A stretch of DNA of 64,000 nt, from the NCBI GenBank assembly GCA_963847185.1, contig CAWJYV010000008.1, positions 576,001-640,000 on the forward strand, given 5' to 3'. Positions 30,488 through 61,091 of the stretch are shown in pieces. The notes beneath the pieces were generated by a model. That model was not told the origin of the DNA, searched no databases, and worked only from the letters and a program-made list of their open reading frames with translations. The translations under genes were made by a program, and so were the position numbers. Position 1 is the first letter of the stretch. The number at the start of each line of letters is the position of its first letter. The DNA is from an uncultured Methanosarcinaceae archaeon. GTDB lineage: Archaea > Halobacteriota > Methanosarcinia > Methanosarcinales > Methanosarcinaceae.

Positions 30488-31981
30488 ATGGACCTTTACC
30501 AGAAGAAGCTTGCCGTGCTCGACCTGACCCACGGCGGCATTCCCATCGCAAAAAAACTTGCAGCTCTTGGAAGCAAAGTGTATGCTATAGACGTCTACGG
30601 GACCGTAGACCCAGGAGTGCTGCTGGAGCTTGAGGAAAAGTATGGGATATACTCCTCAAAAACTCCTTTTCCTGCTTCTGAATTTGATCTTCTTATAGCT
30701 CCCGTACACCTGGACCCTGCATACTCAATGTTAGCGGAAGCCAGAGCAGAAGAAAAAAAAATCATTTCTCATCATCAAATCGTCGGGGAAATTCTGAAAA
30801 AAGATTCAAGATTTTCAGGAATGAAAACTATCGAGGTTACAGGCGTAAAAGCAAAAACGAGCACTGCATCTCTTCTTGCGGATATGCTCTCTAGAAAGTT
30901 TGAAGTAATGCTGCACACCTCAAGGGGGCTTGAAACCTGGAAAGGAGGTGCTTCTTTCCAGATCAGCAAGGGTTTAAGCATAACTCCTGGAAGTATCCTG
31001 GTTGCAGTTGAGAAGGTTGTTGAAGCCGGGCTCAGGCCGGATTATTTTATTTTTGAAATTTCTATCGGCGGCACCGGAAATGCAGATTTCGGGATTCTTA
31101 CGACTCTTTCCCCGGATTATGGGATTGCAAATAATACTTTCCTTGCAAGCGAGGCAAAACTCCAGCTTGTCAAAAAAGCAAAACCTGGCAGTATTCTTCT
31201 CATAAATTCCAGCGCTAAAAAAGCCCTTGAAGCTGCAAAAACGAGCCAGGCAAAAGTCCTGACTTTCAAAGATCCCTTTAATTCAGGGCTTTTAGAAACT
31301 GGAGAAGAAGCGGACTTCTCACTGAAAACAGGGCAAGAAAAAGATTCAGTATTATTATCCTCAGAATTATCAGTTTCATCACTACCAGCAAAGTTATCAG
31401 AATTACCGATTTCTCCGGCATCTTCAGAATCCATTCTGCGCTTTATACACAGAGGAGATGAAGTATTCTCAGCTTCCCTCCTTTCAGGATATAACACTTC
31501 AGCTTACAGGACTGCTTTTGTGGCAGCATCGGCAGCTGCTCTTGAACTTGGGGTTGAGCGTGAAGATGTTATTGCGGTTCTTGAAGAATTCAGAGGTCTT
31601 TCAGGCAGGATGCAGGAAAGGGAGGTAAACGGGATTTTCCTCATAGATAATTCCAATTCTGGTATGGATATTCTCTCCGCCGAAAAAGCCCTTGAGTATG
31701 CCCTCCTGAAGAAAAAAGACGAAAAAAAAGGAGGTATTATTCTTGTCCTCGGAGAAGAAGCCTCTCAGGTCTGTGAGGGACTTCCCCCTGCCTCAGTGCA
31801 AAATTTCGTGGAAAAATTCGGCGCAAAATGCAGGCAGATTTTCCTGGTAGGGGAGCGAATGAGGGCGATTGGTGCCAAAAATGCTTCTTATGCAGGCAGC
31901 CTTCCGGAAGGGCTCTCAAAAGCATGTGAGCTTGCAGGTACAGACGACATAATACTTTCCTCAGTAAAGTGCTTCCGTTAA
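30488..31981 (+). CDS. cfbE: coenzyme F430 synthase (Mur ligase-like)
   Basis: [36 protein letters not shown]. Confidence 0.9.
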
Positions 31982-40392: not shown

Positions 40393-41235
40393 ATGCATAT
40401 GAAGAAACGATTGTTATTTATAGATATTTTAAAAATAATAGGTGTTGGATGCGTATTATTTTGGCACCTTTTTTATGATACAAAAAATCTCATATGGTTT
40501 TTGCCGTTTTATGGAATGATACATCTAGGGGGTATAGGTGTTATTTTATTTTTAATTGCAAGCGGCGCAGCTTTAACTTACAACCAGTACAATTTTAGCT
40601 GTACCAAAAATATTTTAATGTTTTATTATAAACGTCTAATTAGGGTTTATCCGGCTATGTGGCTAGCGATACTGTTCACATTTTTGTTACTACCCTCATT
40701 TTTCGAAAATATAGATTACCGGAAATTATTTGAAGAGATGACAGGATTTTACTATTATTTTAATAAAGACATTCCTACAATCAATTCGTCGTTATGGTTT
40801 ATTGGACTTATCGCCATCTTATATATATTATACCCATTGCTATACTATATAATAAGAAAATACAGGTATAATGGTTTTATCACCATTTTTCTAATTTCAA
40901 TGACAACTCATATCTATTTATATAATAATCCCGAATTTTTTGGCTATACTAGCTTATTTTATTTTGGAGTAATCCCGAATTTGTGGGCATATTGTCTTGG
41001 TATATTTATTATGTCAGTAAATTTATATCCAAAATTTGAATCAAAAAGTTTTGTTATCAAAGAACTCTCTAACTTATCATTTTATATATATCTTTTACAA
41101 TTTGCAATCATACCTTTTTATAAGCTAAGTATACCTTTGTTTATAATAGAACTTCTATTCTCTTCTTATATGTTGATGCTGATAGATAACAAAATAAATG
41201 AGTATCTATTATCATTAAAAATACCTTTCAGTTAA
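40393..41235 (+). CDS. acyltransferase family 3 (OafA-like) membrane protein
   Basis: DILK, H, GVILF..SG, FYYKRL.RVYP, SLWF, SFYIYL; visibly AT-rich. Confidence 0.85.
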   Translation: MHMKKRLLFIDILKIIGVGCVLFWHLFYDTKNLIWFLPFYGMIHLGGIGVILFLIASGAALTYNQYNFSCTKNILMFYYKRLIRVYPAMWLAILFTFLLLPSFFENIDYRKLFEEMTGFYYYFNKDIPTINSSLWFIGLIAILYILYPLLYYIIRKYRYNGFITIFLISMTTHIYLYNNPEFFGYTSLFYFGVIPNLWAYCLGIFIMSVNLYPKFESKSFVIKELSNLSFYIYLLQFAIIPFYKLSIPLFIIELLFSSYMLMLIDNKINEYLLSLKIPFS

Positions 41236-41456: not shown

Positions 41457-42623
41457 TCACTTACTTGTCAGTTCATCTAGCAACTTTAAATACTTCATTT
41501 CCACTTTTTCCCAGGTATAATTCTTTGTAATATATTCCCTTCCATTATCCCCCAGTTTCTTCAAGATTATGGGATTTGAACACAAAAAATTAATACATTC
41601 TGCAAATTCATCGTAACTTCGATACCATAGGCCTGCATTACCTCTTATACAGTGGCCTTTTAAAACATCACAATCTCCATTTACAAGTACAGGAGTCCCA
41701 CATCCCATAGACTCAAGAGTAACTAAGGATAAACTTTCATAGGGAGAAGGCATAATCAAAAATTGCGCACCTTTAAGAAGAGAGTATTTTTCAGCCTCGG
41801 AAACAAAACCAAGATATTTTATTTTGTCATGTTTTGGAACGCCTATTGCATCATATCCTGCCAGAACCAGAGAGGGAATTTCTCTAGATTCCTTCAACAA
41901 TTTTTGGTAATACTCAAACAACTGGTAACATCCTTTGGAACCTTCAATCCTGCCGAGGTAAAGAATATAGTTCTGATCTTTCAGACTCTTATATTCCTGA
42001 ATAAGCTCAGGGATTTCAATGCCACATCCAACAATATCAAAGATTTTTTCTTCTTCTTTTAGGTCCGTTTTTGCTTTAATTAAATTTTTTTCTTCAGGAG
42101 TGCTGTATAGGATACCTTTGACATTTTGGAATATTTCTTTTGTAGTAGAGAGGTCAAGAGCAGGATCATCTTCTGCGAAAGGGGCAATTAGCGCTTTACT
42201 TCCTACTTCTTGGATTCCGTAATAGCTGGGGTAATATCTGAATGTGAAAAAGACAAAAGCATCATAATTCTCTTTGTTTTTGGAGATATATTCCACCAGC
42301 TCAGGACAATAAGGCCCTTGTTCGTCGATCCATAGAATTTCATCTTTCCTGCTATGAGTAGCAAAAAAAGCCTTTTCCTGAATCTTTATATGTTTATTGA
42401 GATCACGCTTTTTTGAATTTTCGAATCTTCTTACAAGAATGCCATTAATTGTTTCAGTTCCTTTTTTGTACTCATTTTTCCATGTATGATAATCTTTCGC
42501 ACAGGTGGAGAGAACCTCGATTTCATGAAATTTTATCATATGTTCAGCAATAAGTCTGGTAAGATATTCTGCACCCCCAATTATATCTTCGCCGTATCTC
42601 TGAACGACAAATGCGACCTTCAT
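41457..42623 (-). CDS. glycosyltransferase family 4
   Basis: GGAE, YLGRIEGSKG, PS.YESLSLVTLESM. Confidence 0.9.
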   Translation of the reverse strand: MKVAFVVQRYGEDIIGGAEYLTRLIAEHMIKFHEIEVLSTCAKDYHTWKNEYKKGTETINGILVRRFENSKKRDLNKHIKIQEKAFFATHSRKDEILWIDEQGPYCPELVEYISKNKENYDAFVFFTFRYYPSYYGIQEVGSKALIAPFAEDDPALDLSTTKEIFQNVKGILYSTPEEKNLIKAKTDLKEEEKIFDIVGCGIEIPELIQEYKSLKDQNYILYLGRIEGSKGCYQLFEYYQKLLKESREIPSLVLAGYDAIGVPKHDKIKYLGFVSEAEKYSLLKGAQFLIMPSPYESLSLVTLESMGCGTPVLVNGDCDVLKGHCIRGNAGLWYRSYDEFAECINFLCSNPIILKKLGDNGREYITKNYTWEKVEMKYLKLLDELTSK

Positions 42624-45034
42624 TAATTAACTTCCTCCTTTAATTTTTCAATAATTGATTGTGCTATTATTTCCCAGGAATATTTTTGTTCAACCAGATT
42701 TCTTGCATTCATTCTCAATTTTTGTTGCAATTCTTCGCTCTCAAGTAACCTGGAAATATTTAGGCGGAACTCTTCAGACGAACATATGAGAGCATGTGCC
42801 TCATTTTCGAGGTCTAAACCTCTTGCCCCTATATGGGTACTGATAACAGGGATTCCAGCACTCATATAGTCCAGCATTTTGAGGTTTGTACCTGATCCGC
42901 TGAACATAGGGTTGATAGCAACATCTGCCAGCATATAAATTTCATACTTTTCGTCCTCATCAACAGTTCCAAAAGCCAGAACATTTTTAGGAAGTTTCCC
43001 ATATTCATGTAAATAATAATCTTTGACGCTGCCAACTACTAAAAACTTATATTCCTTATGCTTTTGAGACAGCTCATCAGTTATAAATTTTAAAGCTTCA
43101 AGATTTGGAGGGTGCCAGCTCCCAATAAAAATAACAGTTATGGAATCTGAAAGGCCTGTAAGCTCCTTTTGCTTTTCTTTATCCTCCTTATTTATGAAGT
43201 GTATTCTGGAGGTATCAACTCCATTTGGAGTTACCAGGACTTTTTCAGGGTTTGCCCCATAAATTTCAACAAGATTTTCTTTGTCTTCCTTTGATGTGCA
43301 AAGTACTAGATCTGACCTTAAAGTTGCTTCTTTTTCAGCATTATATATTTTGGTTGTATACTTAGAATCTTTAAGATAATCTTTTTTAAGTAAATATTCA
43401 AGGTTATGAGCTTCGTAGATAACTGTTTTATTGTTACCTATATACCTGTTTAAAGGCCACAAATAAGGATGGGAAAAAACGACAATATCTGAATCTACTG
43501 CTAATTCTTTTACATTCTCTACATATTCTTTTGACAGATCAATGAAATCTATCATAGCTACGTCATAGAGGTTTACACCTATTTTTTTCTCAACCTCCCA
43601 CTGAAGCTTCGCATGTTCTATACTCTGGGGTATGCAGACCTGCTTTAAACCATTATCCAGAGTAAGATTCTGATATTGCTTATTGGCTTCAATTATCGAG
43701 CAAATTGTCACATCAAAATCTTTTGCTAGTAGAGAATAAATATTATACAGTCTGTGCTGTCCTCCCCCTCTTGGAGGATAACATGAATAAGTGGACAACA
43801 CTAAAATTTTCTTTTTAACATGAGTGGAAATGTCTTTTCTATCAGGAGCAGAAGCTTTCTTATTAGCTACAAGATGGGATGCAAAATTCTTCCATGTTAT
43901 ACCTTTTATGCTCTGATATGCAGTGTTTCCCATTTTTCTGGCAATATCCGGATTTTCAATAAGATAATTTATTTTTTCAGCAATTTTTTGAGGTTCAGGT
44001 TCAACAATATAACCTGTTTCCGAATCTTTAACGAATTCCAGAGAACCCCCACTATCTTTTGCAGTAATAATCGGTTTTTTGCTCATCATTCCTTCAATAG
44101 TAATTAAACCGTAATCCTCATCAAACGGAACAAAGAGGACTGCAAGGGAATCTGAATATAATTCTACAAGTTCATCCTCACCCACAAAACCAAGAAATTC
44201 AATTCTGTGATCATTTTCGGCCATTTTTTTTAGTTTTTCCTCTTCTGGACCTGTCCCTACAATTTTCAGTTTCACATTGTGCGGAACATAACTCATTGCC
44301 TTTACCAGAAGGTCAATACGTTTTGGCCCGTCAAGACGGCTTGCAGTAAAAAGATAACTATAGTTATTGCATTCAAAATTCTCTATTTTTGAAGGAGGAT
44401 AATTTACATCTACCTGTACATCAGGAAAGTAATCTGCTCTTTTTTTTACGTTATTCGACATAGCGAGGTATCTGTTGACTCTTTCAGGAGCAAGTGCATA
44501 TTCATCAAAAAAATGGATAATTTCCCTGATAAAAGGTCCTGGGAATTTGAAAGTTTCTTTGTTATATTTTTTTTGCTCTTTTTTCAACTCAAAAAGCTTT
44601 TCAAATACTTTATTGACAGTATTTTCGTTTTTCCTACCATTCTGAATGAGATTAATAATCTCCTCAACGAGTCCTGTTCTGAGTTTGGGTGCAACCGAAT
44701 AAGCCTCATTACAGAATTTATAAGTATCAAACAATCCTCGTAAATGGTGCACCATATAAACAGTATGGTTACTGTGCTTGAGCATCCAGGAAGGATACTT
44801 GGTAGAAATAACCATATCAAAATAAGAAAGATCAAGCTGATAGAACTTATAATAGGTATCAATGAGTTCCCAGAAACTATTTTCTTTAATTGGAATTTTT
44901 AACAATTCACATTGATGAGAAGTATATTTATTTATCGAATTTTGCATTCCAAGAAAAAGCATTTCTGCACCCCCAAGGGTAAAAGGTACAGGACTCGGTG
45001 CAACAATTGCGATTCTCATTATCTTCACCGTCAT
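42623..45034 (-). CDS. tandem two-domain GT4 glycosyltransferase
   Basis: Domain 1: GGAE, SRL..PKR, EDYGLITIE; domain 2: GGGQ.R, PNGVD, GSGTNLKMLDYM. Confidence 0.9.
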   Translation of the reverse strand: MTVKIMRIAIVAPSPVPFTLGGAEMLFLGMQNSINKYTSHQCELLKIPIKENSFWELIDTYYKFYQLDLSYFDMVISTKYPSWMLKHSNHTVYMVHHLRGLFDTYKFCNEAYSVAPKLRTGLVEEIINLIQNGRKNENTVNKVFEKLFELKKEQKKYNKETFKFPGPFIREIIHFFDEYALAPERVNRYLAMSNNVKKRADYFPDVQVDVNYPPSKIENFECNNYSYLFTASRLDGPKRIDLLVKAMSYVPHNVKLKIVGTGPEEEKLKKMAENDHRIEFLGFVGEDELVELYSDSLAVLFVPFDEDYGLITIEGMMSKKPIITAKDSGGSLEFVKDSETGYIVEPEPQKIAEKINYLIENPDIARKMGNTAYQSIKGITWKNFASHLVANKKASAPDRKDISTHVKKKILVLSTYSCYPPRGGGQHRLYNIYSLLAKDFDVTICSIIEANKQYQNLTLDNGLKQVCIPQSIEHAKLQWEVEKKIGVNLYDVAMIDFIDLSKEYVENVKELAVDSDIVVFSHPYLWPLNRYIGNNKTVIYEAHNLEYLLKKDYLKDSKYTTKIYNAEKEATLRSDLVLCTSKEDKENLVEIYGANPEKVLVTPNGVDTSRIHFINKEDKEKQKELTGLSDSITVIFIGSWHPPNLEALKFITDELSQKHKEYKFLVVGSVKDYYLHEYGKLPKNVLAFGTVDEDEKYEIYMLADVAINPMFSGSGTNLKMLDYMSAGIPVISTHIGARGLDLENEAHALICSSEEFRLNISRLLESEELQQKLRMNARNLVEQKYSWEIIAQSIIEKLKEEVN

Positions 45035-46398
45035 TTTTTACCGATTACTGCATAATCCTGTGCTCCGTACAGGATATCATTCAGTTTCTCGATATTATGA
45101 TTATAAGTCTCAAGATATTTTTTTGTCCATTCTTCCATTCTATCATTCAGCGGAGCTTTTTCCAGTCTTGCTTCCTCTGATACGGGAGAGAAAAACTTAG
45201 TATCTAAGTCCCTAAATCCGGCTGAACTTAGCAGGAACTTAAGGGTTTCCGGATGTATCGGCTTTTTATGAGTCATATCTATGTAAAAATTAGCAAAAGA
45301 TACTAGGGAAAGTGGATTTACAGTTTCTATAAAAATATAGTATCCATACTTGAGTTTCTGAAAACATAGCTGAAGCAGATTTATCAAGTAGTTAGGTTCA
45401 AGATGTTCAACTACCTGGTCGATGAAAATTCCATCGAGACTTTTATCATCAAGCTTTTCGAGATACGAAATAGCTTCATCTTTCACTACATTTAATCCCC
45501 TTGAAAGGCAGTAATCCACCATTGTATCGTCGAGGTCAATACCTTTTGCACCAATACCGAGATCTTTTAATAATTCAAGAAATTCGCCTCTCCCACATCC
45601 GATATCCAGAACATTTGAACAGCCAGTGAAATAAGTTATAAAATTAGACTGACGTTGTTTTATGTCTTCCCTTGAACCCCTGAACTGTTCTTCAAATCTA
45701 AAGTAATTAATATCTAAATTCCCCTTATCAGAAGTTCCTGCTTCTGATTTTTTGGACCCTTCTTTTGCTTTACTTTCAAGTATACTGGCCAACCAGGCTT
45801 TATTTTCAATATCTAATTTCATTGAGGTAATTATAGAGTTAATCTCTGACCTTATGCTGTCATTTATTTCAGACTTGAGGTTCTCTATTTCTTTTTCGAA
45901 TTCAGGTCTCAACTGCTCGATCTTATCCTCAAATTCAGGCCTTAACTTCTCGATTTTAGAATCTATTTCGGATCTCAACTGCTCGGTCTCATTATTATAA
46001 TGGTTGAACTTAGCAGCAGTATCATTAAGAAGGCGGACCGTACTCCCATTAAACACAGTTTGCTTTCCGATAATAGGATCCACATACCGTTTTATTTCTC
46101 CATTCACCAGCTCTCTGCTTTTAACCAGGACTTTTCCGACGACAGGACGATGAGAGCTTATGTAATAACTGTTATTCCCAAGGTCCCAGTTTGAGTTAAT
46201 ATATTCAAAGTCTCTCTCGATATTACTATCACCAATGTGTAGCTCGGAAAGACCCCTTTGAATTACTTCGCCTTTTCTCCCTGGAAAAACTGTTGATTCT
46301 TTTCGCTTACGGATGTTCTCCCTTATTACTCTCATTATTTCTTCAACGCTGATTTCGTTTTCACTGGTTCCTTCTTTGTTGATTTCGAATATATCCAT
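45031..46398 (-). CDS. coiled-coil plus class I SAM methyltransferase (putative glycan chain terminator)
   Basis: FEEQFRGS, VLDIGCGRGEF, QVVEHL, ETVNP; N-terminal coiled coil with 11-aa repeats. Confidence 0.85.
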   Translation of the reverse strand: MDIFEINKEGTSENEISVEEIMRVIRENIRKRKESTVFPGRKGEVIQRGLSELHIGDSNIERDFEYINSNWDLGNNSYYISSHRPVVGKVLVKSRELVNGEIKRYVDPIIGKQTVFNGSTVRLLNDTAAKFNHYNNETEQLRSEIDSKIEKLRPEFEDKIEQLRPEFEKEIENLKSEINDSIRSEINSIITSMKLDIENKAWLASILESKAKEGSKKSEAGTSDKGNLDINYFRFEEQFRGSREDIKQRQSNFITYFTGCSNVLDIGCGRGEFLELLKDLGIGAKGIDLDDTMVDYCLSRGLNVVKDEAISYLEKLDDKSLDGIFIDQVVEHLEPNYLINLLQLCFQKLKYGYYIFIETVNPLSLVSFANFYIDMTHKKPIHPETLKFLLSSAGFRDLDTKFFSPVSEEARLEKAPLNDRMEEWTKKYLETYNHNIEKLNDILYGAQDYAVIGKK

Positions 46399-46417
46399 AA
46401 AATATCACATCCCAAAC

Positions 46418-47638
46418 TCAGATCTTCCAGTTGCAAGGTACATCAAAAAGTCCAATATCTCTACACGTTGGAATTACATCAAAAGAATATTGTTTATCGT
46501 GCCAATCATACGGTTTTTGATCGTGAGTATGCACAGCTACTGTCAGTAGAAATCTTCCTGTAATCATAGGAATTCTTTCTATTATCAGGTCAACATGCCC
46601 TTTGCCTTCAAGAATATCAATTTCGATATTTTTTATTTCCGTATTTGTTCCAAAAAGATTTTCTCCGTTTTCGGAGTATAGAGCAATGCCGAATATTGGG
46701 TCAGAAACTTTATTATGTGCATTGTAAAAGATTCTGATTGTCATAGGATCAAAGGAGTTGAATCTGGAACCTTTGTTGCCAAACTTATCATAGAACTCTA
46801 CATTTGTGACCTCAATGGTCTTATCTCCCCACCGAGAAGTTTTATCCTCAGATTTTACTTCCGGTTCGTGAACTTCTGACTCGCTCTGACTTCCTGATAC
46901 AGGCGCTTCTTCTCCGCCACCATACACATAACGGTCAATTACATCTCCTGTATCTCCTATGACTATCTGCTCCCCTTTATTCAAAAGTAAAGTCCTATCA
47001 CAAAATCTTCTCACTGCCCCAAGATCATGTGAAACAAAAACAATAGTAACTCCATCTTTTCGATACTGGCTAAGGACATCCAGACATTTCTGCTGAAACT
47101 CCATGTCTCCAACTGCCAAAACTTCATCCATCAAAAGAATTTCCGGATCTGTTTGAATTGCTGTTGAAAAAGCAAGTCTTACCTGCATACCCGAGGAAAA
47201 GTTTTTGAGTTTAGCGTCCCTGAAGTTCTCAAGTCCTGCGAACTCAAGGATATCGTCCAGCTTATCATTAATTTCTCTTTTTTGCATCCCCATGATAGTT
47301 GCATAAATTTTTATATTCTCTGCAGCCGTGAGGTCAGACTGAAAGCCAACTCCAAGTTCGAGGAAGGGAGTGAGTTTCTTTAGAGAAGTGACTTTACCTG
47401 ATGAGGGACGCATGATATTTGCAATAATTTTCAATAAAGTACTCTTCCCACTTCCGTTCTCCCCAATAATTCCAAGAGCTTCACCTTCTTCAACTGTAAA
47501 ATTGATATCGTTGAGTGCTTGGAAAGTTTCATAGGTCGGAGGTTTAAAGGCTCCGGTCAAAGTCTCAAATAGAGTTGTTCTTTTTTCATGGGGTATGCGA
47601 AATGTTTTGTGCAGGTGCTTAACCTCAATTGCAACCAT
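46418..47638 (-). CDS. wzt: polysaccharide ABC transporter ATPase with C-terminal carbohydrate-binding domain
   Basis: GENGSGKS, FSSGM.VRLAF, DEVLAVGD, SHD; about 150-aa beta-rich C-terminal extension. Confidence 0.9.
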   Translation of the reverse strand: MVAIEVKHLHKTFRIPHEKRTTLFETLTGAFKPPTYETFQALNDINFTVEEGEALGIIGENGSGKSTLLKIIANIMRPSSGKVTSLKKLTPFLELGVGFQSDLTAAENIKIYATIMGMQKREINDKLDDILEFAGLENFRDAKLKNFSSGMQVRLAFSTAIQTDPEILLMDEVLAVGDMEFQQKCLDVLSQYRKDGVTIVFVSHDLGAVRRFCDRTLLLNKGEQIVIGDTGDVIDRYVYGGGEEAPVSGSQSESEVHEPEVKSEDKTSRWGDKTIEVTNVEFYDKFGNKGSRFNSFDPMTIRIFYNAHNKVSDPIFGIALYSENGENLFGTNTEIKNIEIDILEGKGHVDLIIERIPMITGRFLLTVAVHTHDQKPYDWHDKQYSFDVIPTCRDIGLFDVPCNWKI

Positions 47639-48417
47639 CAGATTTCCTCCGCAAAACGTGGTTCTAATTTGGAAAAGATAATGTATCCTACAAGGAGGAA
47701 GACTATTGATGAAAAAAACATGAATAAAAGGTCTTCTGTTTTAGCTGGAGAAGAGTAAATAATAGTATCCCTTGCAGAAATAAGAATCCGTGCGATTGGA
47801 TTCAATAGGACAAATTTCTGTAGATTTTGAGGAAATATGTCGAGGGTATAAAGTATAGGGGTTAAAAAATATCCAGCCTGCAAAAAGACCTGCCAGATAA
47901 ACTGCACGTCTCTGTAAAATACGTTCAAGGAGGAAAGCGCCAGAGAGACACCAAGCGAGAGAATAAACAGGAACAATAGGATAAGCGGTACATAGACCAG
48001 GTTGATTGAAATTGGTACCCTGAAAAATGCCATAAACATTATGAATATCAGAGACTCGAAAATGCTCATGAGCAAAGCTGTAATGCATGAGGAAATAACA
48101 AAGATATCTCTGGGGAAGTAAATTTTCTTAACCATACTTGGTTTTCCCACTATGGAAAACATTCCGATTGTAGTTGCTCTGCTAAAAAAACTCCACAAAA
48201 TGATTCCAAGAAGCAAAAACAGCTGGTAGTATTCTACCTGGACCCTCATCAAGTTAGAAAAAACAACATATAGAACCAGGAGCATAAGCATGGGTTCTAG
48301 AAGAGACCAGAAATAGCCCAGTATAGAGTTTTTATATCTTAATTTAAATTCGCTCCATGCCAGTTGCCAGATAAGATTCCTATAGCCATAGAGCTCTTTT
48401 AAGTGTTTAAAGGTCAT
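47638..48417 (-). CDS. wzm: polysaccharide ABC transporter permease
   Basis: [30 protein letters not shown]. Confidence 0.9.
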
Positions 48418-49490
48418 TTACTTACCACATTTTTTATCTTTTCATTGAAAATCGAAAGATCAAAGCGCTTTGCCTGCTCAAAACAAGATTCCCTGTAACT
48501 TTCAGGTTCAAGAGATATTAATTTAACAGCTTCCATAATACTGTAATTATCTGCTTTTATAAGGAGGCCCGTCTTTTCAGTTACTGTCTCTTTAAACCCA
48601 CCTTCGTTCACTGCGACAACAGGCTTTCCACTTGCCATTGCTTCCACAGGAGTTAGCCCAAAATCTTCGTCAAGTGCTGTGCAGATAAGACCCCTGCACC
48701 TGGCATAAAGATCAATTAATTCCTGTTCAGAAACCTCTCCAAGTATCTTCACGTTGGAGGGTAGTTTATTATTTATATTTTTTGCATATTTTTCAGCATG
48801 ATCACCTTTTGCATAGCCACCTACAATAATTAGTTTTTCATCAGGCATTTTTCTGAAAGCTTCTATTTGTAATTCAATTCTTTTTTCAGGATAAAGCCTG
48901 TTTACCGAGAGCCAGAAATCCCCGTATTCCTTAAACCTGAACTTTGAAATATCAACCGGAGGATAAATTATGTCAGAAGTCCTTTTATGATATTTCTCAA
49001 TTCTGTTCTGAGAGTTTTTCGAAATAGTAACAATTTGATCAATATAATTTACTGATTTTTGATCCAGCAATCTGTGGCCGTGTACCCAGGCACGAAAAGC
49101 CTGCCGGGTAATAAGATCCTGCCTCTGTAAGAAAGTATCGTAGAGATCATAAAAAGCCCTTACAGGTGTGTAGCAGTACCACATATTAGGATGATGTTTA
49201 TAGGCTGCATAATGGCTCCAGTTTCCTGTGAAGATGAAAAAGTCATAATCATTTGAAAAATTGCAGGAATAAAATTTTCCTGTAGCAGAAATCTGTTTTA
49301 GCGGGGGGACCTTCTTTGTGTGCCCGAGAGATATCACGTTTACTTTATCATTCAGTTTGTCAACTGCGTCCAGATCCGTAGTGATAATATCAGCGTTTAG
49401 TAACTTCGCTAGAGTGAGGACGACTCTCTCTCCGCCGCCAATAGCTCCAAAGTAATCATGAAAGATAGCTGTTTTCATGTTTGTTCTCAT
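48414..49490 (-). CDS. glycosyltransferase family 4 (mannosyltransferase-like)
   Basis: HDY...[33 protein letters not shown]. Confidence 0.9.
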
Positions 49491-49933
49491 TTTTTAAATT
49501 ATTTCACTTTAAATTTAAATTGGGATTTATATGTGTTTCGAAGCGATTTTTAATTTGAACAGAAACTCAGATATTTATGCTAAATTTACTGTTAAATTTA
49601 CTGCTAATATGTTTTATTGATTCAAATAAAAACCCGGCTATCTGCCTGCTTAATGGAGTTAAGTTTAATATCCAGATTTCAGTAAGCAAATTTTTTCGCT
49701 TATGAGGTCACCCGGTCTCATCCCCATTAAGGCACTTAACAAGAAAAATCCTGAGACAACCATTCTGATCTTACAGAGTAATAATAACTTAACATAAAAT
49801 TAACAAAAATTTGGCATATCAATTAGTTTATATAGATTAAGAAGATATGCTTTTTGCAAAGGGAGCTACGTTTTTAAGATAAATAAAGTCCTATCTCCTG
49901 CAACATAAGAATTGGGAGCAATAAGGTGATTCC

Positions 49934-50956
49934 TTGACAAAGGTCGCACTGATCACAGGCATAACAGGCCAGGACGGCACATATATTTCAAAACTTTTAT
50001 TAGATAAGGGGTATGTAGTCCATGGAATAAAAAGAGAATCTTCTACCAGAATAGAAGATAAGGAGAAAGAACAGAAAAATCCGAATCTTCATATTCACTT
50101 CTGTGATATGGCCGATTATTCAAAGCTCATCAGAATTATTCAAGAAGTCTGTCCGGACGAAATCTATAATCTGGCAGCCCAAAGCAATGTACAGGTTTCT
50201 TTTGACAGACCGGAATACACAGCAGAAATTAACGCCTTTGGTACTCTCCGTCTTCTTGAAGCTATACGCACCCTTGGTCTTGAAAAGAAAACGAGGTTTT
50301 TTCAGGCTTCTACCGGAGACTTATTTGGGAACTCACCTGAAATTCCGCAAAATGAAAATACTCCCTTTAACCCTTTAAATCCTTATGCGGTGTCCAAACT
50401 ATATGCTTACTGTATTGCAAAAAACTACCGTGAAGCTTATAAAATGTTTATCTGCAATGGTATCCTGTTTAATCATGAATCTCCAATAAGACCAGATAGT
50501 TTCGTTACGAGAAAAATTACCAGATCTGCAGTCAGAATAAAAAAAGGGCTCCAGGAGAAACTCTACCTTGGGAATCTGAATGCAAAAAGAGATTGGGGAT
50601 TTGCAGGAGATTATGTTGAAGCCATGTGGCTTATGTTACAACAGGATAAACCGGATGACTATGTAATTGCAACAGGTGAAACACATTCAGTACAGGAAAT
50701 GGTGGAGTTTGCATTCAAAGAAGTCGGGATCGAGATAGAATGGGAAGGAGAAGGGATTGAGAAAAAAGGGAGAAATGCTGCAACAGGTAAGATCCTGATT
50801 GAGGTGGACCCTCAGTTTTACAGGCCTCTTGAGTCAAATTTATTGGTAGGAGATCCTTCAAAAGCCAGGAAAAAACTCGGATGGGTACCCAGGGTAAATT
50901 TTGAAGAACTTGTCAAATTGATGGTCAAAAATGATCTGGAATTAGTGAAATGTTAA
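49934..50956 (+). CDS. gmd: GDP-mannose 4,6-dehydratase paralogue with altered active site
   Basis: TGITGQDG, YxxxK, NHES, RDWG; but ASTGD instead of ASTSE and KRESS instead of RRSS. Confidence 0.8.
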
Positions 50957-50986
50957 AAAATTTATTTGCTTAATTGTGTGGTAAAA

Positions 50987-52015
50987 ATGTCTAAAGTCGC
51001 ATTACTTACAGGTGTAACCGGTCAGGATGGAGCATACCTTGCCGAATTCTTACTAAACAAAGGGTATACTGTGCACGGGATGCACAGAAGATCGTCTCTG
51101 AGCAACACAGGACGAATAGATTGTCTCCTGAAAGACCCTCATCAAAAAGATTGTAAATTTTTTTTGCATTACGGAGACCTGACAGATTCAGCAAATGTTA
51201 TCAGACTTATCAAGAATATAGAGCCTGATGAAATTTACAACCTTGGAGCTCAGAGCCATGTCCAGGTTTCTTTTGAGACTCCGGAGTACACTGCAAACTC
51301 GGACGGGATTGGAGCCCTTCGTATTCTGGAAGCAATAAGAATTCTTGAACTTGAGGACAAATCGAAGTTTTATCAGGCATCAACCAGTGAATTATTCGGG
51401 AAAGTACGTGAAGTCCCCCAAAAAGAAACTACTCCTTTCTACCCCCGGAGTCCCTATTCAGTAGCTAAACTGTATGCTTACTGGATTGCGATAAACTATC
51501 GTGAAGCCTATAATATGTTTACCTGCAACGGTATCCTGTTTAATCATGAGTCTCCTTTGAGAGGAGAAACTTTCGTTACCAGAAAGATTACAATAGCCGC
51601 ATCAAAGATAAAGAAAGGGCTTCAGGAGAAACTGTACCTTGGGAATCTCAATGCTCAGCGCGACTGGGGATTTGCAGGAGATTATGTAGAAGCCATGTGG
51701 CTTATGTTACAACAGGATAGGCCCGATGATTATGTCGTAGCTACAGGGGAAACTCATTCAGTTAGAGAATTTACCGAACTGGCTTTTAAAGAAGCAGGTA
51801 TTGACCTCGAATGGGAAGGCGAAGGAGTTAACGAGATTGGAAAGGATATAAACAGCGGAAAAGTACTCGTCGAGGTTGATCCGATGTTTTACAGACCTAC
51901 AGAAGTAGATCTGTTGATAGGAGACTCTTCAAAGGCCAGGGAAAAACTTGGATGGAAGCCAAAGGTAAGTTTTGAAGAACTGATCAGAATGATGGTAAAA
52001 AGTGATATGAAATAA
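50987..52015 (+). CDS. gmd: GDP-mannose 4,6-dehydratase (canonical)
   Basis: [43 protein letters not shown]. Confidence 0.93.
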
Positions 52016-52096
52016 ATCCGGTGGAAGGGGGTAGAGATATTTTTGTGAAAAATTTTTTAAATTGGAAATAAAATATAGAAACATTTAGAAATAAAT

Positions 52097-54649
52097 GTGA
52101 GTAAAAAAATAAATGTGAGTAAAATGGAGAAGTCAGAAAAAATCAGTCAGAATAAAGATGCACGAAAAAAAGATCCGAAAGAGATCCTCGTGCTTGGAGC
52201 TGCTCTCTTAGCTGGCTTCATCATGCGCATGCTCTCGTATGCCGCAGTTACTGCAAACGGGAGCATAACCTTCCCTGGATATGATGATTATTATCATATG
52301 CGGCGCATTCTTTATGCAGTTTCAAGTTTTCCCAATTCACTTAATTTCGATTCTTACCTCAACTATCCTTATGGCTATGAAATCGGATGGCCTCCTTTTT
52401 TTGACCTGTTAGGTGCTCTGCTTGCAAAAATTCTCGGAGGAGGGCAGCCTGATCCGCATACTATCGAATTTGCAGGAGCATTACTGCCGGTACTTCTCGG
52501 AACTCTGACAATAATCCCACTGTATATAGCAGCCAGCTCGGTTTTTGACAAAAAAACCGGACTTCTCGGGGCTTTCATTTTCGCAGTCATTCCAGCCCAT
52601 TTATACGTATCCCGTTTTGGAGCGGCTGACCATCACGTAGCAGAGGCACTCCTATCTACGGCAGCTTATGCATGTTTTATACTTGCCTTGAAAATTGCAA
52701 ATAAAAAAAATCTTTCCTTAAATTCGCTTAAGAACATATCAGAAAAAAGAGACCTTATAACTTCTCTGGTTCTTGCAGCGGTTTCAGGGCTGTTTCTTGC
52801 ACTCCTAATTTACACATGGGTAGGAGCTCCTGTTTTTGTAAGTTTTATCGTATTGTATGCATTCATACAGACCACAATCGATCTCAAAGCTGGAAAAGAA
52901 TCCGATTACCTATTTATCTGCTCAATTACATGCATTGTTTCAACACTTCTGTTTACTATTCCCCTGTCAGCCGGATCAGTGCGACCAGGTCTGGAAATGA
53001 GTGCAGTATACATTTCCTGGTTTCAGGTATTTTATGTGCTCAGCATGCTAGTTGGAGCTTTCCTCCTCTGGGGGCTTTCTGGATCTGTCTCAAAAAAGGC
53101 TCTGGACTGGAAGTTTTATCCTGGAATCTTAATTCTGGTTTTAGGTGCAGGTATTCTCTCTCTGCGAATTTTTTCCGCAGAATCCTACTCTTTTGTGATG
53201 GAAGGTCTGAGATTCTTCACAGGAAAAGGGGAATATATAGGAACCATTTCCGAAGCTGTGCCTTTATTTTTGACAGGACAGGGAAATCTTACTTTCGGAC
53301 CGGTACTGGGAAGTTTTGGACTCTGCTTTATTGCAGCTTTGATAGCTTTCTTCCTGCTCGGACTTGAGTGGAAAGGTGAGAACTCAAAGCCAGAAGGAAT
53401 ATATCTCCTTTTATGGACAGCCTTTTCCGCATATCTCGTTCTTTCGCAGAGGCGTTTCTCGTATCTTTTTTCAGTAAATGTTGCAATTCTTACCTCCTAT
53501 TTACTCTGGATTTTGTTTGAATCGCTCAATTTTGAAACTGAAGTAAGGAACCTGTTAAAACTCGGAAAAAAGAATCAAAATAATAAAACTACTCATCAGG
53601 TTTCAAAAGAAACAAAATTAAAGACAAAGTCAAAAGTAAAAGCAAAGAATGAATCAGCAAAGAATGAATTAACAAAGGATAGGTTACTAAAGAACAGATC
53701 AGGATCGAAAAGTAATCAGAACCCTGATTACTTCAAAATTGTTTCATCACTGGTTCTTTTAGGGCTTGTCTTTGTACCCTGTATATGGGCAGGAGTTGCT
53801 TTTGCAAAAAGTACGAGTTCGATTGATGGAGCCTGGCAGGACTCTCTGCAATGGTTAGAAACTTCCAGCCCCGAGACTTCTTATTACCTTCAGCCTTCTC
53901 AAACTCCAGAGTATGGAGTTCTGAGCTGGTGGGACTATGGAAACTGGATCGTATATCTCTCAAAAAGGCCTGCAGTCTCGAATAATTTCCAGACAGGCGT
54001 TGAAGATTCTGCACATTTTTTCATAACTGACTCAGAACAGGAAGCAAAAGCTATCATCGAAAAACTCAAGGTAAAATATGTGATAACCGATACACTGATG
54101 GCAGGTGGCAAATTTTCGGCTATTTCTGAACTTGCAGGAAAAAACGTCACGGATTATTTTGATGTTCAAACAGTCAAAGGAAAAACGGGTCTTCAGACGG
54201 TTGCAACTCCGAAAAATGCCTTTATGAATACTGAAGTATATAAGCTTCAAGAACTTGACGGCTCAAATCTCGGAAACTTGCGGCTCATTCACGAAAGTGT
54301 AGCAAATAGCACGGAGAATAAAAATAACAAAGATAATACTGTAAAGGTATTCGAATATGTTTCAGGAGCTAGGCTTTCAGGTACTGTAAATCCAAAAGAG
54401 ACTGTTACTGCGACACTTGAATTGCGCTCAAATACAGGTAGAGGATTCACATATCAGAACAAAGCGGCGGCAGATGAAAAAGGTTTATTTGAAATAACCG
54501 TGCCTTATTCGACAGAAAATACTGGAACCGAAACCACTGCTACGTCAACCTATTCCATTAGCTCAGAAGAAAACGTTACAGCAACAGGAATCCAGGTAAA
54601 AGAAAGTGATGTTCTGAACGGGAACACAATAGAAGTAAACAATTCCTGA
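52097..54649 (+). CDS. aglB: oligosaccharyltransferase AglB (STT3 family)
   Basis: DDYYHMRR, DHH..E, TISE, WWDYG, NNFQ; many TM helices. Confidence 0.93.
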   Translation: MSKKINVSKMEKSEKISQNKDARKKDPKEILVLGAALLAGFIMRMLSYAAVTANGSITFPGYDDYYHMRRILYAVSSFPNSLNFDSYLNYPYGYEIGWPPFFDLLGALLAKILGGGQPDPHTIEFAGALLPVLLGTLTIIPLYIAASSVFDKKTGLLGAFIFAVIPAHLYVSRFGAADHHVAEALLSTAAYACFILALKIANKKNLSLNSLKNISEKRDLITSLVLAAVSGLFLALLIYTWVGAPVFVSFIVLYAFIQTTIDLKAGKESDYLFICSITCIVSTLLFTIPLSAGSVRPGLEMSAVYISWFQVFYVLSMLVGAFLLWGLSGSVSKKALDWKFYPGILILVLGAGILSLRIFSAESYSFVMEGLRFFTGKGEYIGTISEAVPLFLTGQGNLTFGPVLGSFGLCFIAALIAFFLLGLEWKGENSKPEGIYLLLWTAFSAYLVLSQRRFSYLFSVNVAILTSYLLWILFESLNFETEVRNLLKLGKKNQNNKTTHQVSKETKLKTKSKVKAKNESAKNELTKDRLLKNRSGSKSNQNPDYFKIVSSLVLLGLVFVPCIWAGVAFAKSTSSIDGAWQDSLQWLETSSPETSYYLQPSQTPEYGVLSWWDYGNWIVYLSKRPAVSNNFQTGVEDSAHFFITDSEQEAKAIIEKLKVKYVITDTLMAGGKFSAISELAGKNVTDYFDVQTVKGKTGLQTVATPKNAFMNTEVYKLQELDGSNLGNLRLIHESVANSTENKNNKDNTVKVFEYVSGARLSGTVNPKETVTATLELRSNTGRGFTYQNKAAADEKGLFEITVPYSTENTGTETTATSTYSISSEENVTATGIQVKESDVLNGNTIEVNNS

Positions 54650-60374: not shown

Positions 60375-61091
60375 ATGTCCCTACCAGAAATCTGTCCACT
60401 TGATGAAACCCAGATATGCAAAGGGCGGGAGTGCCATCTCTTCTGTCTGGAATGGAGAACTAGAGAACCTACTTGTCTTATAGGTTACAGTACGACAAGT
60501 AAAGTAAAGTCCGGAAATGAGGGTCGTAAGAAGGATACTTACGCTGAAGAAACCTTCAGGAAGTTAGGCAGGCAGCCTCTCTCTAAAAAAAGACACTCTT
60601 CTGAAAATGGGGATTGGACTCCTAAGAGGCCCATAGAAAAACCCCAGGGAAGACCTGTTGAAAGAAAAGAGGAAATATTCACTCCGGCAGCAAATTTTCA
60701 GGAACCAGTTGCAAGAAATCCTGAGCTAAAACCTGAGAAAGATCATGATGAAAGGTTGAAAGAAAGATTTGCCTTCGGTGAAGCCGAGAAAGCATCTATG
60801 AGACTTGAGGCCCGGCTAAAAAAAGAGCCTGGTGAAGAACAACAAATAATATATGGAAAAACTCAGCCAAAACTTCAGGAAAAACCGAAAGTACCGGAAA
60901 AAATAATTTCAAGAGATAGGAATACAACGATTTTTGTATCCAGTGATGCGGACGAAAAGAAAGACCTTTACCTGTCAGAGAGAGAAGAAAAAGCAAAAAA
61001 AAACCTGGAAAACAGGGAAAAACGTAAGAAGCTTGAAGAAGTCATGGAGATAGACCTTCCTGACGGTTATAAAGAGGAATTCTGGAGCTAA
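60375..61091 (+). CDS. hypothetical protein, Cys-rich N-terminus and charged low-complexity body
   Basis: CP......C....C...C..........C, then K/E/P-rich sequence. Confidence 0.65.
   Translation: MSLPEICPLDETQICKGRECHLFCLEWRTREPTCLIGYSTTSKVKSGNEGRKKDTYAEETFRKLGRQPLSKKRHSSENGDWTPKRPIEKPQGRPVERKEEIFTPAANFQEPVARNPELKPEKDHDERLKERFAFGEAEKASMRLEARLKKEPGEEQQIIYGKTQPKLQEKPKVPEKIISRDRNTTIFVSSDADEKKDLYLSEREEKAKKNLENREKRKKLEEVMEIDLPDGYKEEFWS

Follow-up and report, generated by a model that had tools for sequence, protein, structure and literature searches.

A stretch of 64,000 nucleotides from an uncultured Methanosarcinaceae archaeon (assembly GCA_963847185.1, contig CAWJYV010000008.1, positions 576,001 to 640,000), hereafter called the window, contains a glycan locus in which a six-gene operon on the minus strand diverges from two genes for GDP-mannose 4,6-dehydratase (GMD) and a gene for an archaeal oligosaccharyltransferase, aglB (Table 1). 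The operon encodes a family 4 glycosyltransferase (GT4), the permease (Wzm) and ATPase (Wzt) of an ATP-binding cassette (ABC) exporter, a coiled-coil methyltransferase, a two-module GT4 and a last GT4. A first-pass annotation of this DNA had described the same arrangement, and the coordinates, together with Pfam and NCBIfam profiles run on the window proteins, bear out every item. The operon is translationally coupled: overlaps of 1 or 4 nt occur at four of its five junctions, the one between wzm and wzt being of 1 nt, while wzt and the methyltransferase gene are separated by a 19-nt gap. The spacer between the two divergent gene sets presumably houses their promoters. All nine reading frames of the locus are intact. 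The G+C content is 32-39% in the 40-50 kb stretch as compared with 41-45% in the flanks, where methanogen housekeeping genes are found. A Pfam scan of all window open reading frames (ORFs) of at least 110 aa revealed no Wzx, Wzy or Wzz in the cluster. The scan of window ORFs likewise placed no Wzy_C or PMT_2 gene there, the sole PMT_2 match in the window being a weak secondary one on AglB itself. The locus is a strain-variable surface-glycan locus of a Methanosarcina, the genus to which near-identical homologues of one window protein are assigned, and homology of its parts makes it very probable that the operon encodes an ABC-transporter-dependent, cap-terminated glycan pathway similar to those for bacterial O8/O9a, Aquifex and S-layer glycans.

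Table 1. Features of the glycan locus, with positions in the window
Feature	Position	Strand	Evidence
GT4, 388 aa, last gene of the operon	41457..42623	-	Pfam Glycos_transf_1, E 1.1e-19
Two-module GT4, 803 aa	42623..45034	-	two Glycos_transf_1 stretches, aa 224-374 and about 650-795
Class I S-adenosylmethionine-dependent methyltransferase, 455 aa, candidate chain terminator	45031..46398	-	Pfam MetW/Methyltransf, aa 259-400
wzt, ABC ATPase with C-terminal Wzt_C	46418..47638	-	ABC_tran E 1.7e-25, Wzt_C E 1.3e-31
wzm, ABC-2 permease	47638..48417	-	Pfam ABC2_membrane, E 3.6e-21
GT4, 358 aa, first gene of the operon	48414..49490	-	Pfam Glycos_transf_1, E 7.5e-28
Intergenic spacer between export operon and gmd-gmd-aglB, 443 bp	49491..49933		coordinates
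gmd1, diverged GMD paralogue	49934..50956	+	TIGR01472, 514 bits
gmd2, canonical GMD	50966..52015	+	TIGR01472, 592 bits
aglB, oligosaccharyltransferase, 850 aa	52097..54649	+	STT3, AglB_core-like, AglB_L1; TIGR04154, 766 bits
Membrane protein of the Acyl_transf_3 family (280 aa), convergent with the operon	40393..41235	+	Pfam, E 2.4e-17

By homology, the exporter is predicted to inspect its cargo. Residues 267-399 of Wzt match the Pfam profile Wzt_C with 109.9 bits against a cut-off of 30.4, so the extra C-terminal domain noted in the first-pass annotation is identified as Wzt_C. The best solved relative is Wzt of Aquifex aeolicus (8DKU/7K2T; E about 1e-67 over aa 30-388), and the alignment extends through the carbohydrate-binding domain. 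The Aquifex O antigen is described as a polymer of D-rhamnose and D-mannose capped with 3-O-methylrhamnose or 3-O-methylmannose, and the Wzt domain as binding 3-O-methyl-D-mannose, not mannose, in a pocket formed by Ile299, Leu300, Asn313, Thr346, Ala348, His350 and Trp362, with His355 touching the next sugar; replacement of Trp362 abolished binding (PMC9445017). The equivalents in the window are I318, A319, N332, T366, A368, H370, H372 and W379, giving identity at seven of eight residues, with A319 in place of Leu300. (The chain index in this alignment is the published number plus one, as verified for nine of nine named residues.) Of 43 orthologue rows from related loci, 21 show the pocket pattern I-A-N-T-A-H-x-W, and a Wzt_C match is also present in M. 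acetivorans. The permease gives below-cut-off NCBIfam matches to galactan Wzm/RfbD and KpsM. The prediction that the C-terminal domain of Wzt reads a methylated cap is thus well supported, and homology, in the form of the Wzt_C domain and the conserved Aquifex pocket, sustains the ABC-dependent, capped assembly line that had been postulated. A second wzm/wzt pair (G000:C10:40000-59999, L038) has a weak Wzt_C match (E 6.4e-10) and no aglB nearby; its neighbours are family 2 glycosyltransferases (GT2), a short-chain dehydrogenase (SDR) and a hexapeptide transferase, with DDE transposases interspersed.

A cap has to be installed, and the candidate for this task is the methyltransferase encoded directly after wzt, a position that a methyltransferase also holds in archaeal and bacterial relatives. 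Its catalytic domain is preceded by coiled-coil-type Pfam matches (aa 117-200), and aa 231-455 align with PDB 3DLI from Archaeoglobus fulgidus (E 1.9e-73, 54% identity). An alignment of 14 homologues divides the protein into three parts, namely a conserved region of about aa 1-125, a repetitive and charged segment whose length varies greatly, and the conserved catalytic domain, while an AlphaFold model (mean pLDDT, the predicted local distance difference test, 61.7) shows a single helix at residues 108-213 (about 105 residues) and, with confidence, a Rossmann domain. Two conserved anchor motifs were both matched in 73 of 121 homologues (the other 48 missed the patterns), and in those 73 the spacer between the anchors measures 55-266 residues, with a median of 107. 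Judged from these alignments and the model, the coiled coil and its variable spacer would fit a molecular ruler. The homologue in M. acetivorans is 72% identical, and an Atlas look-up of it returned only methyltransferase clusters, mostly bacterial; some homologues bear the JGI label 'O-antigen chain-terminating methyltransferase'. A predicted complex between the two-module GT4 and terminator residues 1-130 scored 0.45, the best of three controls scoring 0.00, with a contact agreement between runs of at least 36% and a partner pLDDT of at least 41. The score mark is reached by 116 of 157 solved complexes and by 2 of 215 mismatched pairs, and scores at 0.60 or under include 18 of those 157 solved complexes as well as both passing mismatches. 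The model lends weak support to the idea that the N-terminal region of the terminator contacts the two-module GT4.

Comparison among relatives connects reader and terminator. In the Methanosarcina genome G007, Wzt is 71% identical overall, its pocket reads IANTLQKH, and wzt is followed by a different methyltransferase of 404 aa and then a triple GT4. Genomes G055, G085 and G098 have another wzm/wzt subtype along with a terminator-homologue frame of about 1,100 aa; that of G055, adjacent to aglB, spans 1084 aa (L156:10393-13644) and gives three methyltransferase-type Pfam matches plus a coiled-coil match. G019 encodes, again next to aglB, a 1234-aa methyltransferase-GT4 fusion resembling WsaE (L166:13408-17112), and its Wzt is devoid of the binding domain. 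Reader and terminator therefore change together in each of these cases, which is the cassette-wise co-variation that a cap-recognition system predicts.

The glycosyltransferases fall into a conserved and a variable set. In most archaeal clusters the first GT4, 55-89% identical, is retained beside wzm and the downstream enzymes vary; it matches PDB 2F9F, 'first mannosyl transferase (wbaZ-1)', with an E-value of 2.7e-73. It is a candidate adaptor or first mannosyltransferase acting on a lipid-linked primer, a role that suits an enzyme retained while those downstream are swapped. The two-module GT4, whose layout is WbdA-like, is the candidate chain-extending polymerase; it is 32-82% identical or replaced among relatives, and 43% identical to the two-module GT4 of a Paenibacillus gmd-SDR-wzm-wzt-methyltransferase cluster. 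The last GT4 is 79-88% identical in two Methanosarcina relatives and replaced in others. A single AglH/WecA-type phosphotransferase is present in the genome, located elsewhere.

With respect to sugar supply, gmd1 and gmd2 are 64% identical to one another and both exceed the TIGR01472 equivalog cut-off of 415 bits. The product of gmd2 aligns with GMDs in the PDB at E-values from 1e-157 to 1e-107 and keeps the catalytic residues, which we take to be Thr-Ser-Glu ... Tyr-x-x-x-Lys, whereas gmd1 has Gly-Asp for Ser-Glu (QASTGDLFG as compared with QASTSELFG). The change from Ser to Gly or Ala is found in all gmd1 orthologues and that from Glu to Asp in the Methanosarcina ones; gmd1 of genus g13 reads Gly/Ala-Glu where the canonical QASTSE[LM]FG has Ser-Glu. 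The partner of the module's GMD in Methanomicrobiales, Paenibacillus and other loci is instead an SDR of 320-350 aa. Since gmd1 occupies the place that this SDR holds beside GMD in other lineages, it may be a dehydratase turned reductase that took over the 4-reductase step toward GDP-D-rhamnose. The gmd pair is missing from 4 of the 11 tabulated Methanosarcina genomes with aglB beside the exporter, and the glycan backbone is for this reason probably mannose-based, with deoxyhexose optional. Methanochondroitin, a polymer of N-acetylgalactosamine (GalNAc) and uronic acids, was considered as the product and set aside, the enzymes of the cluster being of the GT4/GDP-mannose type.

The remaining gene of the locus is aglB. 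Its product exceeds the TIGR04154 cut-off of 450 bits and aligns with A. fulgidus AglB-L (3WAJ; E 3.2e-45), the WWDYG motif included. Four aglB copies exist in this genome of 4.04 Mb, at two loci. The other three stand in tandem in a conventional cluster (G000:C8:808000-827999, L041), about 190 kb from the window, together with RmlD, RmlA, a Wzx-type flippase, three GT2 and three GT4; the first of the three is split into frames of 639 and 239 aa. With adjacency judged within 10 kb, aglB adjoins the exporter in 11 of 17 Methanosarcinaceae loci around Wzt orthologues (five of the other six belong to genus g16 and one is cut by the assembly) and in five of five further Methanosarcinaceae loci. 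Counted by genome, this amounts to 11 of 13 Methanosarcina, with further genera of the family showing it as well; of the two remaining Methanosarcina, G092 is interrupted here by contig ends, and in G037 the neighbour of aglB is a different, small cluster. With no more than two aglB loci in the 4.04 Mb of the genome, and the same arrangement found again in other species, the adjacency is not due to chance. Within Methanosarcina it persists through replacement of exporter subtype, terminator and glycosyltransferases. Among relatives AglB is 54-76% identical, as against 85-96% for the housekeeping neighbour TrkA-DHH, and so behaves like a member of the variable island. The layout is different in five Methanomicrobiales loci, where gmd-SDR-GT4-wzm-wzt-methyltransferase is preceded, about 9 kb upstream and on the same strand, by an AglB more similar to the other paralogue type. 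Across the 43 genomes of genera g3, g4, g8 and g10, the AglB type of the window is found in five (E<=1e-60). Wzt at least 58% identical is confined to four (G090, G019, G064, G100), all of them among those five, and the two genes lie within 10 kb of one another in three of the four. The expectation of conserved synteny between exporter, methyltransferase and aglB was accordingly confirmed for Methanosarcinaceae and part of Methanomicrobiales and failed for genus g16 and most other lineages. On balance, the genomic evidence slightly favours the view that this AglB transfers the exported chain to Asn of surface proteins.

RNA-library contigs from a relative 95-99% identical cover the glycosyltransferases, wzt, the two gmd genes and a 1.75-kb part of aglB, although DNA carry-over is possible; they derive from one metatranscriptome and are silent on strand, transcript ends and level, and uncovered bins are uninformative. 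One DNA contig skips 363 nt inside the methyltransferase gene, but with 24 letters on its shorter side this was treated as unreliable. The Acyl_transf_3 protein (Table 1), which sits at the edge of the low-G+C cluster, aligns with positions 2-197 of the 326 in the profile; it could be either a truncated or a compact O-acetyltransferase, possibly one that O-acetylates the exported glycan, and is a peripheral and uncertain member of the cluster. Two ORFs amid the housekeeping genes, 30488-31981 (497 aa) and 60375-61091 (238 aa), gave no Pfam match at E<=1e-5.

These components can be assembled into a route of six steps, from primer to transfer by AglB, for which, taken as a whole, we consider the case evenly balanced. 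A dolichyl-phosphate-linked primer would be made elsewhere by the genome's one AglH/WecA-type transferase, and the conserved GT4 beside wzm would add the first mannose-type sugar. The two-module GT4 and the last GT4 would then extend the chain from GDP-mannose, with a GDP-6-deoxyhexose, most likely GDP-D-rhamnose, as a further donor in genomes that have the gmd pair. In the fourth step the coiled-coil methyltransferase would O-methylate the non-reducing end and so stop growth, the length of its helix possibly setting the length of the chain. The methylated mannose or rhamnose cap would next be read by the C-terminal domain of Wzt, licensing export by Wzm/Wzt. Outside the membrane, the divergently encoded AglB paralogue would finally transfer the chain to Asn of surface proteins, a part taken in Geobacillus by the O-oligosaccharyltransferase WsaB. 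In its most specific form, which we put forward tentatively and hold a little less firmly than the route itself, the proposal is that Methanosarcina and some Methanomicrobiales possess a serotype-like, hypervariable island, whose glycosyltransferases, terminator, cap reader and exporter subtype would be exchanged as cassettes, for an O-antigen-like, N-linked mannan or D-rhamnomannan with a 3-O-methyl cap that Wzt reads as the permit for export, a length set by the coil and a dedicated AglB.

Several observations weigh against the proposed route and have to be considered alongside the alternatives to it. In the exporter, the trap loop of the cap pocket is three residues shorter than that of Aquifex, and the Aquifex hinge residue Tyr233 is aligned to Val238. 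The N-terminal region of the terminator folds at low confidence in the AlphaFold model. Membership of the terminator in the family of WbdD, the terminator of E. coli O8/O9a, was rejected, given that WbdD was neither among the five PDB sequence matches at E<=0.01 nor among the Foldseek matches listed (about the top 50 ranks), which comprise generic class I methyltransferases besides 3DLI; the protein may have a mode of action like that of WbdD without being a relative. For M. mazei, three aglB genes are reported, two of them with adjoining locus numbers (MM0646/MM0647), and surface glycoproteins are described that bind concanavalin A and carry hexose and N-acetylhexosamine (PMC4350412), a chemistry that fits the route. 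The AglB that is recorded there as detected by proteomics is MM0647, not MM2210 (PMC4350412), and the published Methanosarcina data that we found on glycans or lipid-linked intermediates extend to hexose and N-acetylhexosamine only.

The alternatives diverge mainly over the fate of the chain. The same capped ABC export could serve a product that is not N-linked, such as a lipoglycan, a glycan on a non-protein acceptor or a released exopolysaccharide, with aglB a mere neighbour in a recombination-prone island; we judge this rather unlikely. In its favour, outside Methanosarcinaceae the 10 kb around most of the clusters contain no aglB: it is adjacent in 2 of 34 loci of the phylum's other families and not adjacent in the other 32 (several of which end at contig ends), and 14 of 23 archaeal module loci are without it (some limited by contig ends). 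The same holds for five of five loci of genus g16, where two complete genomes place AglB 1-2 Mb from the exporter. The closest bacterial clusters, those of Paenibacillus, Thermincola, Chloroflexota and Clostridia, share the order wzm-wzt-methyltransferase-glycosyltransferase, and an STT3-type ORF was found in 0 of 37 bacterial loci with this module. Adjacency in Methanosarcinaceae may itself be one inherited arrangement, and conservation at the edges of variable glycan islands does not by itself make genes functional partners, yet in Methanosarcina the adjacency outlives the replacement of exporter, terminator and glycosyltransferases, and it recurs in the other layouts of Methanomicrobiales. 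Three g13 genomes keep the window-type aglB without a Wzt orthologue, which shows this AglB to be independent of the exporter; where g13 genomes are devoid of wzm/wzt, a differently composed glycan cluster still lies opposite this aglB, which suggests that window-type AglB serves whatever glycan its island makes. Co-variation of AglB with the set of glycosyltransferases was looked for and not seen, the glycosyltransferases of locus L043 being 82-88% identical and its AglB only 65%. Set against this independence is the joint occurrence of the AglB and Wzt types in the four sporadic carriers, from four genera. There is, moreover, no other kind of ligase in or near the cluster, and the genome's only Wzy_C protein (C10:758.9-760.5 kb) belongs to a separate exopolysaccharide cluster. 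That cluster (G000:C10:750000-769999, L039) contains a Bac_transf initiating transferase, several GT2, one GT4 and a heparinase II/III-like protein in addition to Wzy_C.

The absence of PMT_2 and Wzy_C genes from the window's cluster likewise counts against a related and improbable alternative, in which another membrane transferase, either a PMT_2-type GT-C protein or an unrecognised O-oligosaccharyltransferase, attaches the glycan and AglB serves a different one. This idea draws on the Geobacillus precedent, in which the transferase is an O-oligosaccharyltransferase (PMC2943079), and on PMT_2-type GT-C proteins in three clusters without aglB. These proteins, of 600-740 aa (L029:2482-4299, L122:16841-19069, L045:17247-19190), are encoded inside wzm-wzt-methyltransferase clusters and may be alternative transferases or post-export modifiers. 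It is least probable, and in our opinion very much so, that the locus is a recently acquired island of bacterial type, silent or decaying and without any role in the envelope. The closest non-archaeal relatives of the module are indeed bacterial, and the island stands out from its flanks by its G+C content; however, low G+C is described as usual for such glycan clusters (PMC2943079), the nine frames are intact with four overlapping junctions, 55 of the phylum's 401 genomes contain orthologous clusters, and the genes are covered, as weak evidence, by the RNA-library contigs.

A literature search on a Wzm/Wzt route to AglB in archaea found no paper describing one. The passage of lipid-linked glycans across the archaeal membrane is characterised as poorly defined, and the reason for several AglB paralogues as little known (PMC3703281). 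Should the proposed route be correct, it would provide the first mechanistically defined exporter of lipid-linked glycans for archaeal N-glycosylation. It would also explain the presence of several AglB paralogues, one for each export route, a rule of specialisation suggested by the occurrence, in one and the same genome, of one aglB with an ABC exporter and three with a Wzx-type flippase. Polysaccharide-type, strain-variable N-glycans would be predicted on methanogen surfaces, with a bearing on aggregation, granule formation, virus recognition and lectin binding. A link to the unexplained transient methylation of Halobacterium dolichyl oligosaccharides (Lechner 1985, cited in PMC11407970) was entertained and found to be unsupported: the Wzt_C domain is carried by 55 of the 401 genomes in the phylum and, in the largest coded families, by 0/64, 0/25 and 1/54 genomes.

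The O8/O9a systems of E. coli (K. pneumoniae O5/O3) resemble the window's locus in many respects, possessing an ABC-2 exporter, a Wzt with a C-terminal carbohydrate-binding domain, glycosyltransferases exclusively of the GT4 type, among them a two-module enzyme, and a coiled-coil methylating enzyme directly after wzt, with no Wzx, Wzy or Wzz. Their components are WbdC, WbdB and WbdA, the terminator WbdD, and Wzm with a Wzt that bears a carbohydrate-binding module, and the O9a gene order, which we take to be wzm-wzt-terminator-polymerase-glycosyltransferase, is the same as that of the window's operon. The catalytic domains of WbdD are N-terminal to its coil, whereas the methyltransferase of the window lies C-terminal to the coil and is accompanied by no kinase domain. 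The host differs as well, having neither an outer membrane nor lipid A-core, and an oligosaccharyltransferase gene stands adjacent in place of WaaL. Aquifex WzmWzt (7K2T, 8DKU) is similar to the window's exporter down to the residues of the cap pocket, Trp362 included, Leu300 to Ala being the one difference among the eight, and its rhamnose/mannose polymer fits the window's GMD route to a 6-deoxyhexose; an archaeon must use another carrier lipid and another final acceptor. ABC-driven delivery to an STT3-type enzyme is known from Campylobacter jejuni, in which the flippase PglK supplies a lipid-linked glycan to PglB. PglK belongs to a different ABC class and handles a fixed heptasaccharide, with no cap reader, terminator or polymer.

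The AglB pathways of Haloferax volcanii and Methanococcus share with the window's locus an AglB of the WWDYG type. Described archaeal pathways differ from it in that they make short oligosaccharides, and we found none with a Wzm/Wzt exporter or a cap-reading domain. Chemical precedents are furnished by Methanothermus fervidus, for a methyl-mannose N-glycan in a methanogen, and by Halobacterium salinarum, for an N-linked polysaccharide in an archaeon. The former is reported to contain 3-O-methylmannose together with mannose and GalNAc and the latter to be built of repeat units, so that the first-pass annotation, in calling the predicted glycan unlike typical archaeal N-glycans, overstated the contrast with structures already in print (PMC2948927). 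A short as well as a long chain would have a precedent, and the long, length-controlled chain of the first-pass annotation is the more tentative part of its proposal. Clustering of glycan-assembly genes around aglB is reported from other archaea also (PMC9128505), and in a 2024 review of archaeal N-glycosylation the terms 'flippase' and 'ABC transporter' do not occur (PMC11407970).

The closest functional analogue of the proposed route is the S-layer glycan pathway of Geobacillus stearothermophilus NRS 2004/3a, in which, as described, a rhamnan capped by 2-O-methylation is exported by Wzm/Wzt and moved to the S-layer protein by WsaB (PMC2943079). The slg pathway of that organism is given as WsaP, WsaC/D/E/F, Wzm/Wzt and WsaB, encoded in a low-G+C cluster of overlapping genes (PMC2943079). 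In Geobacillus the methyltransferase is fused to two rhamnosyltransferase domains (WsaE), whereas that of the window is a separate coiled-coil protein, and the Geobacillus ligase is an O-oligosaccharyltransferase of the Wzy_C type, in contrast to the STT3-type AglB of the window, which would give an N-linkage. By this analogy the parts of the locus resemble those of known systems, and an STT3-type N-oligosaccharyltransferase at the position of WsaB, in an archaeon, would be the new element.

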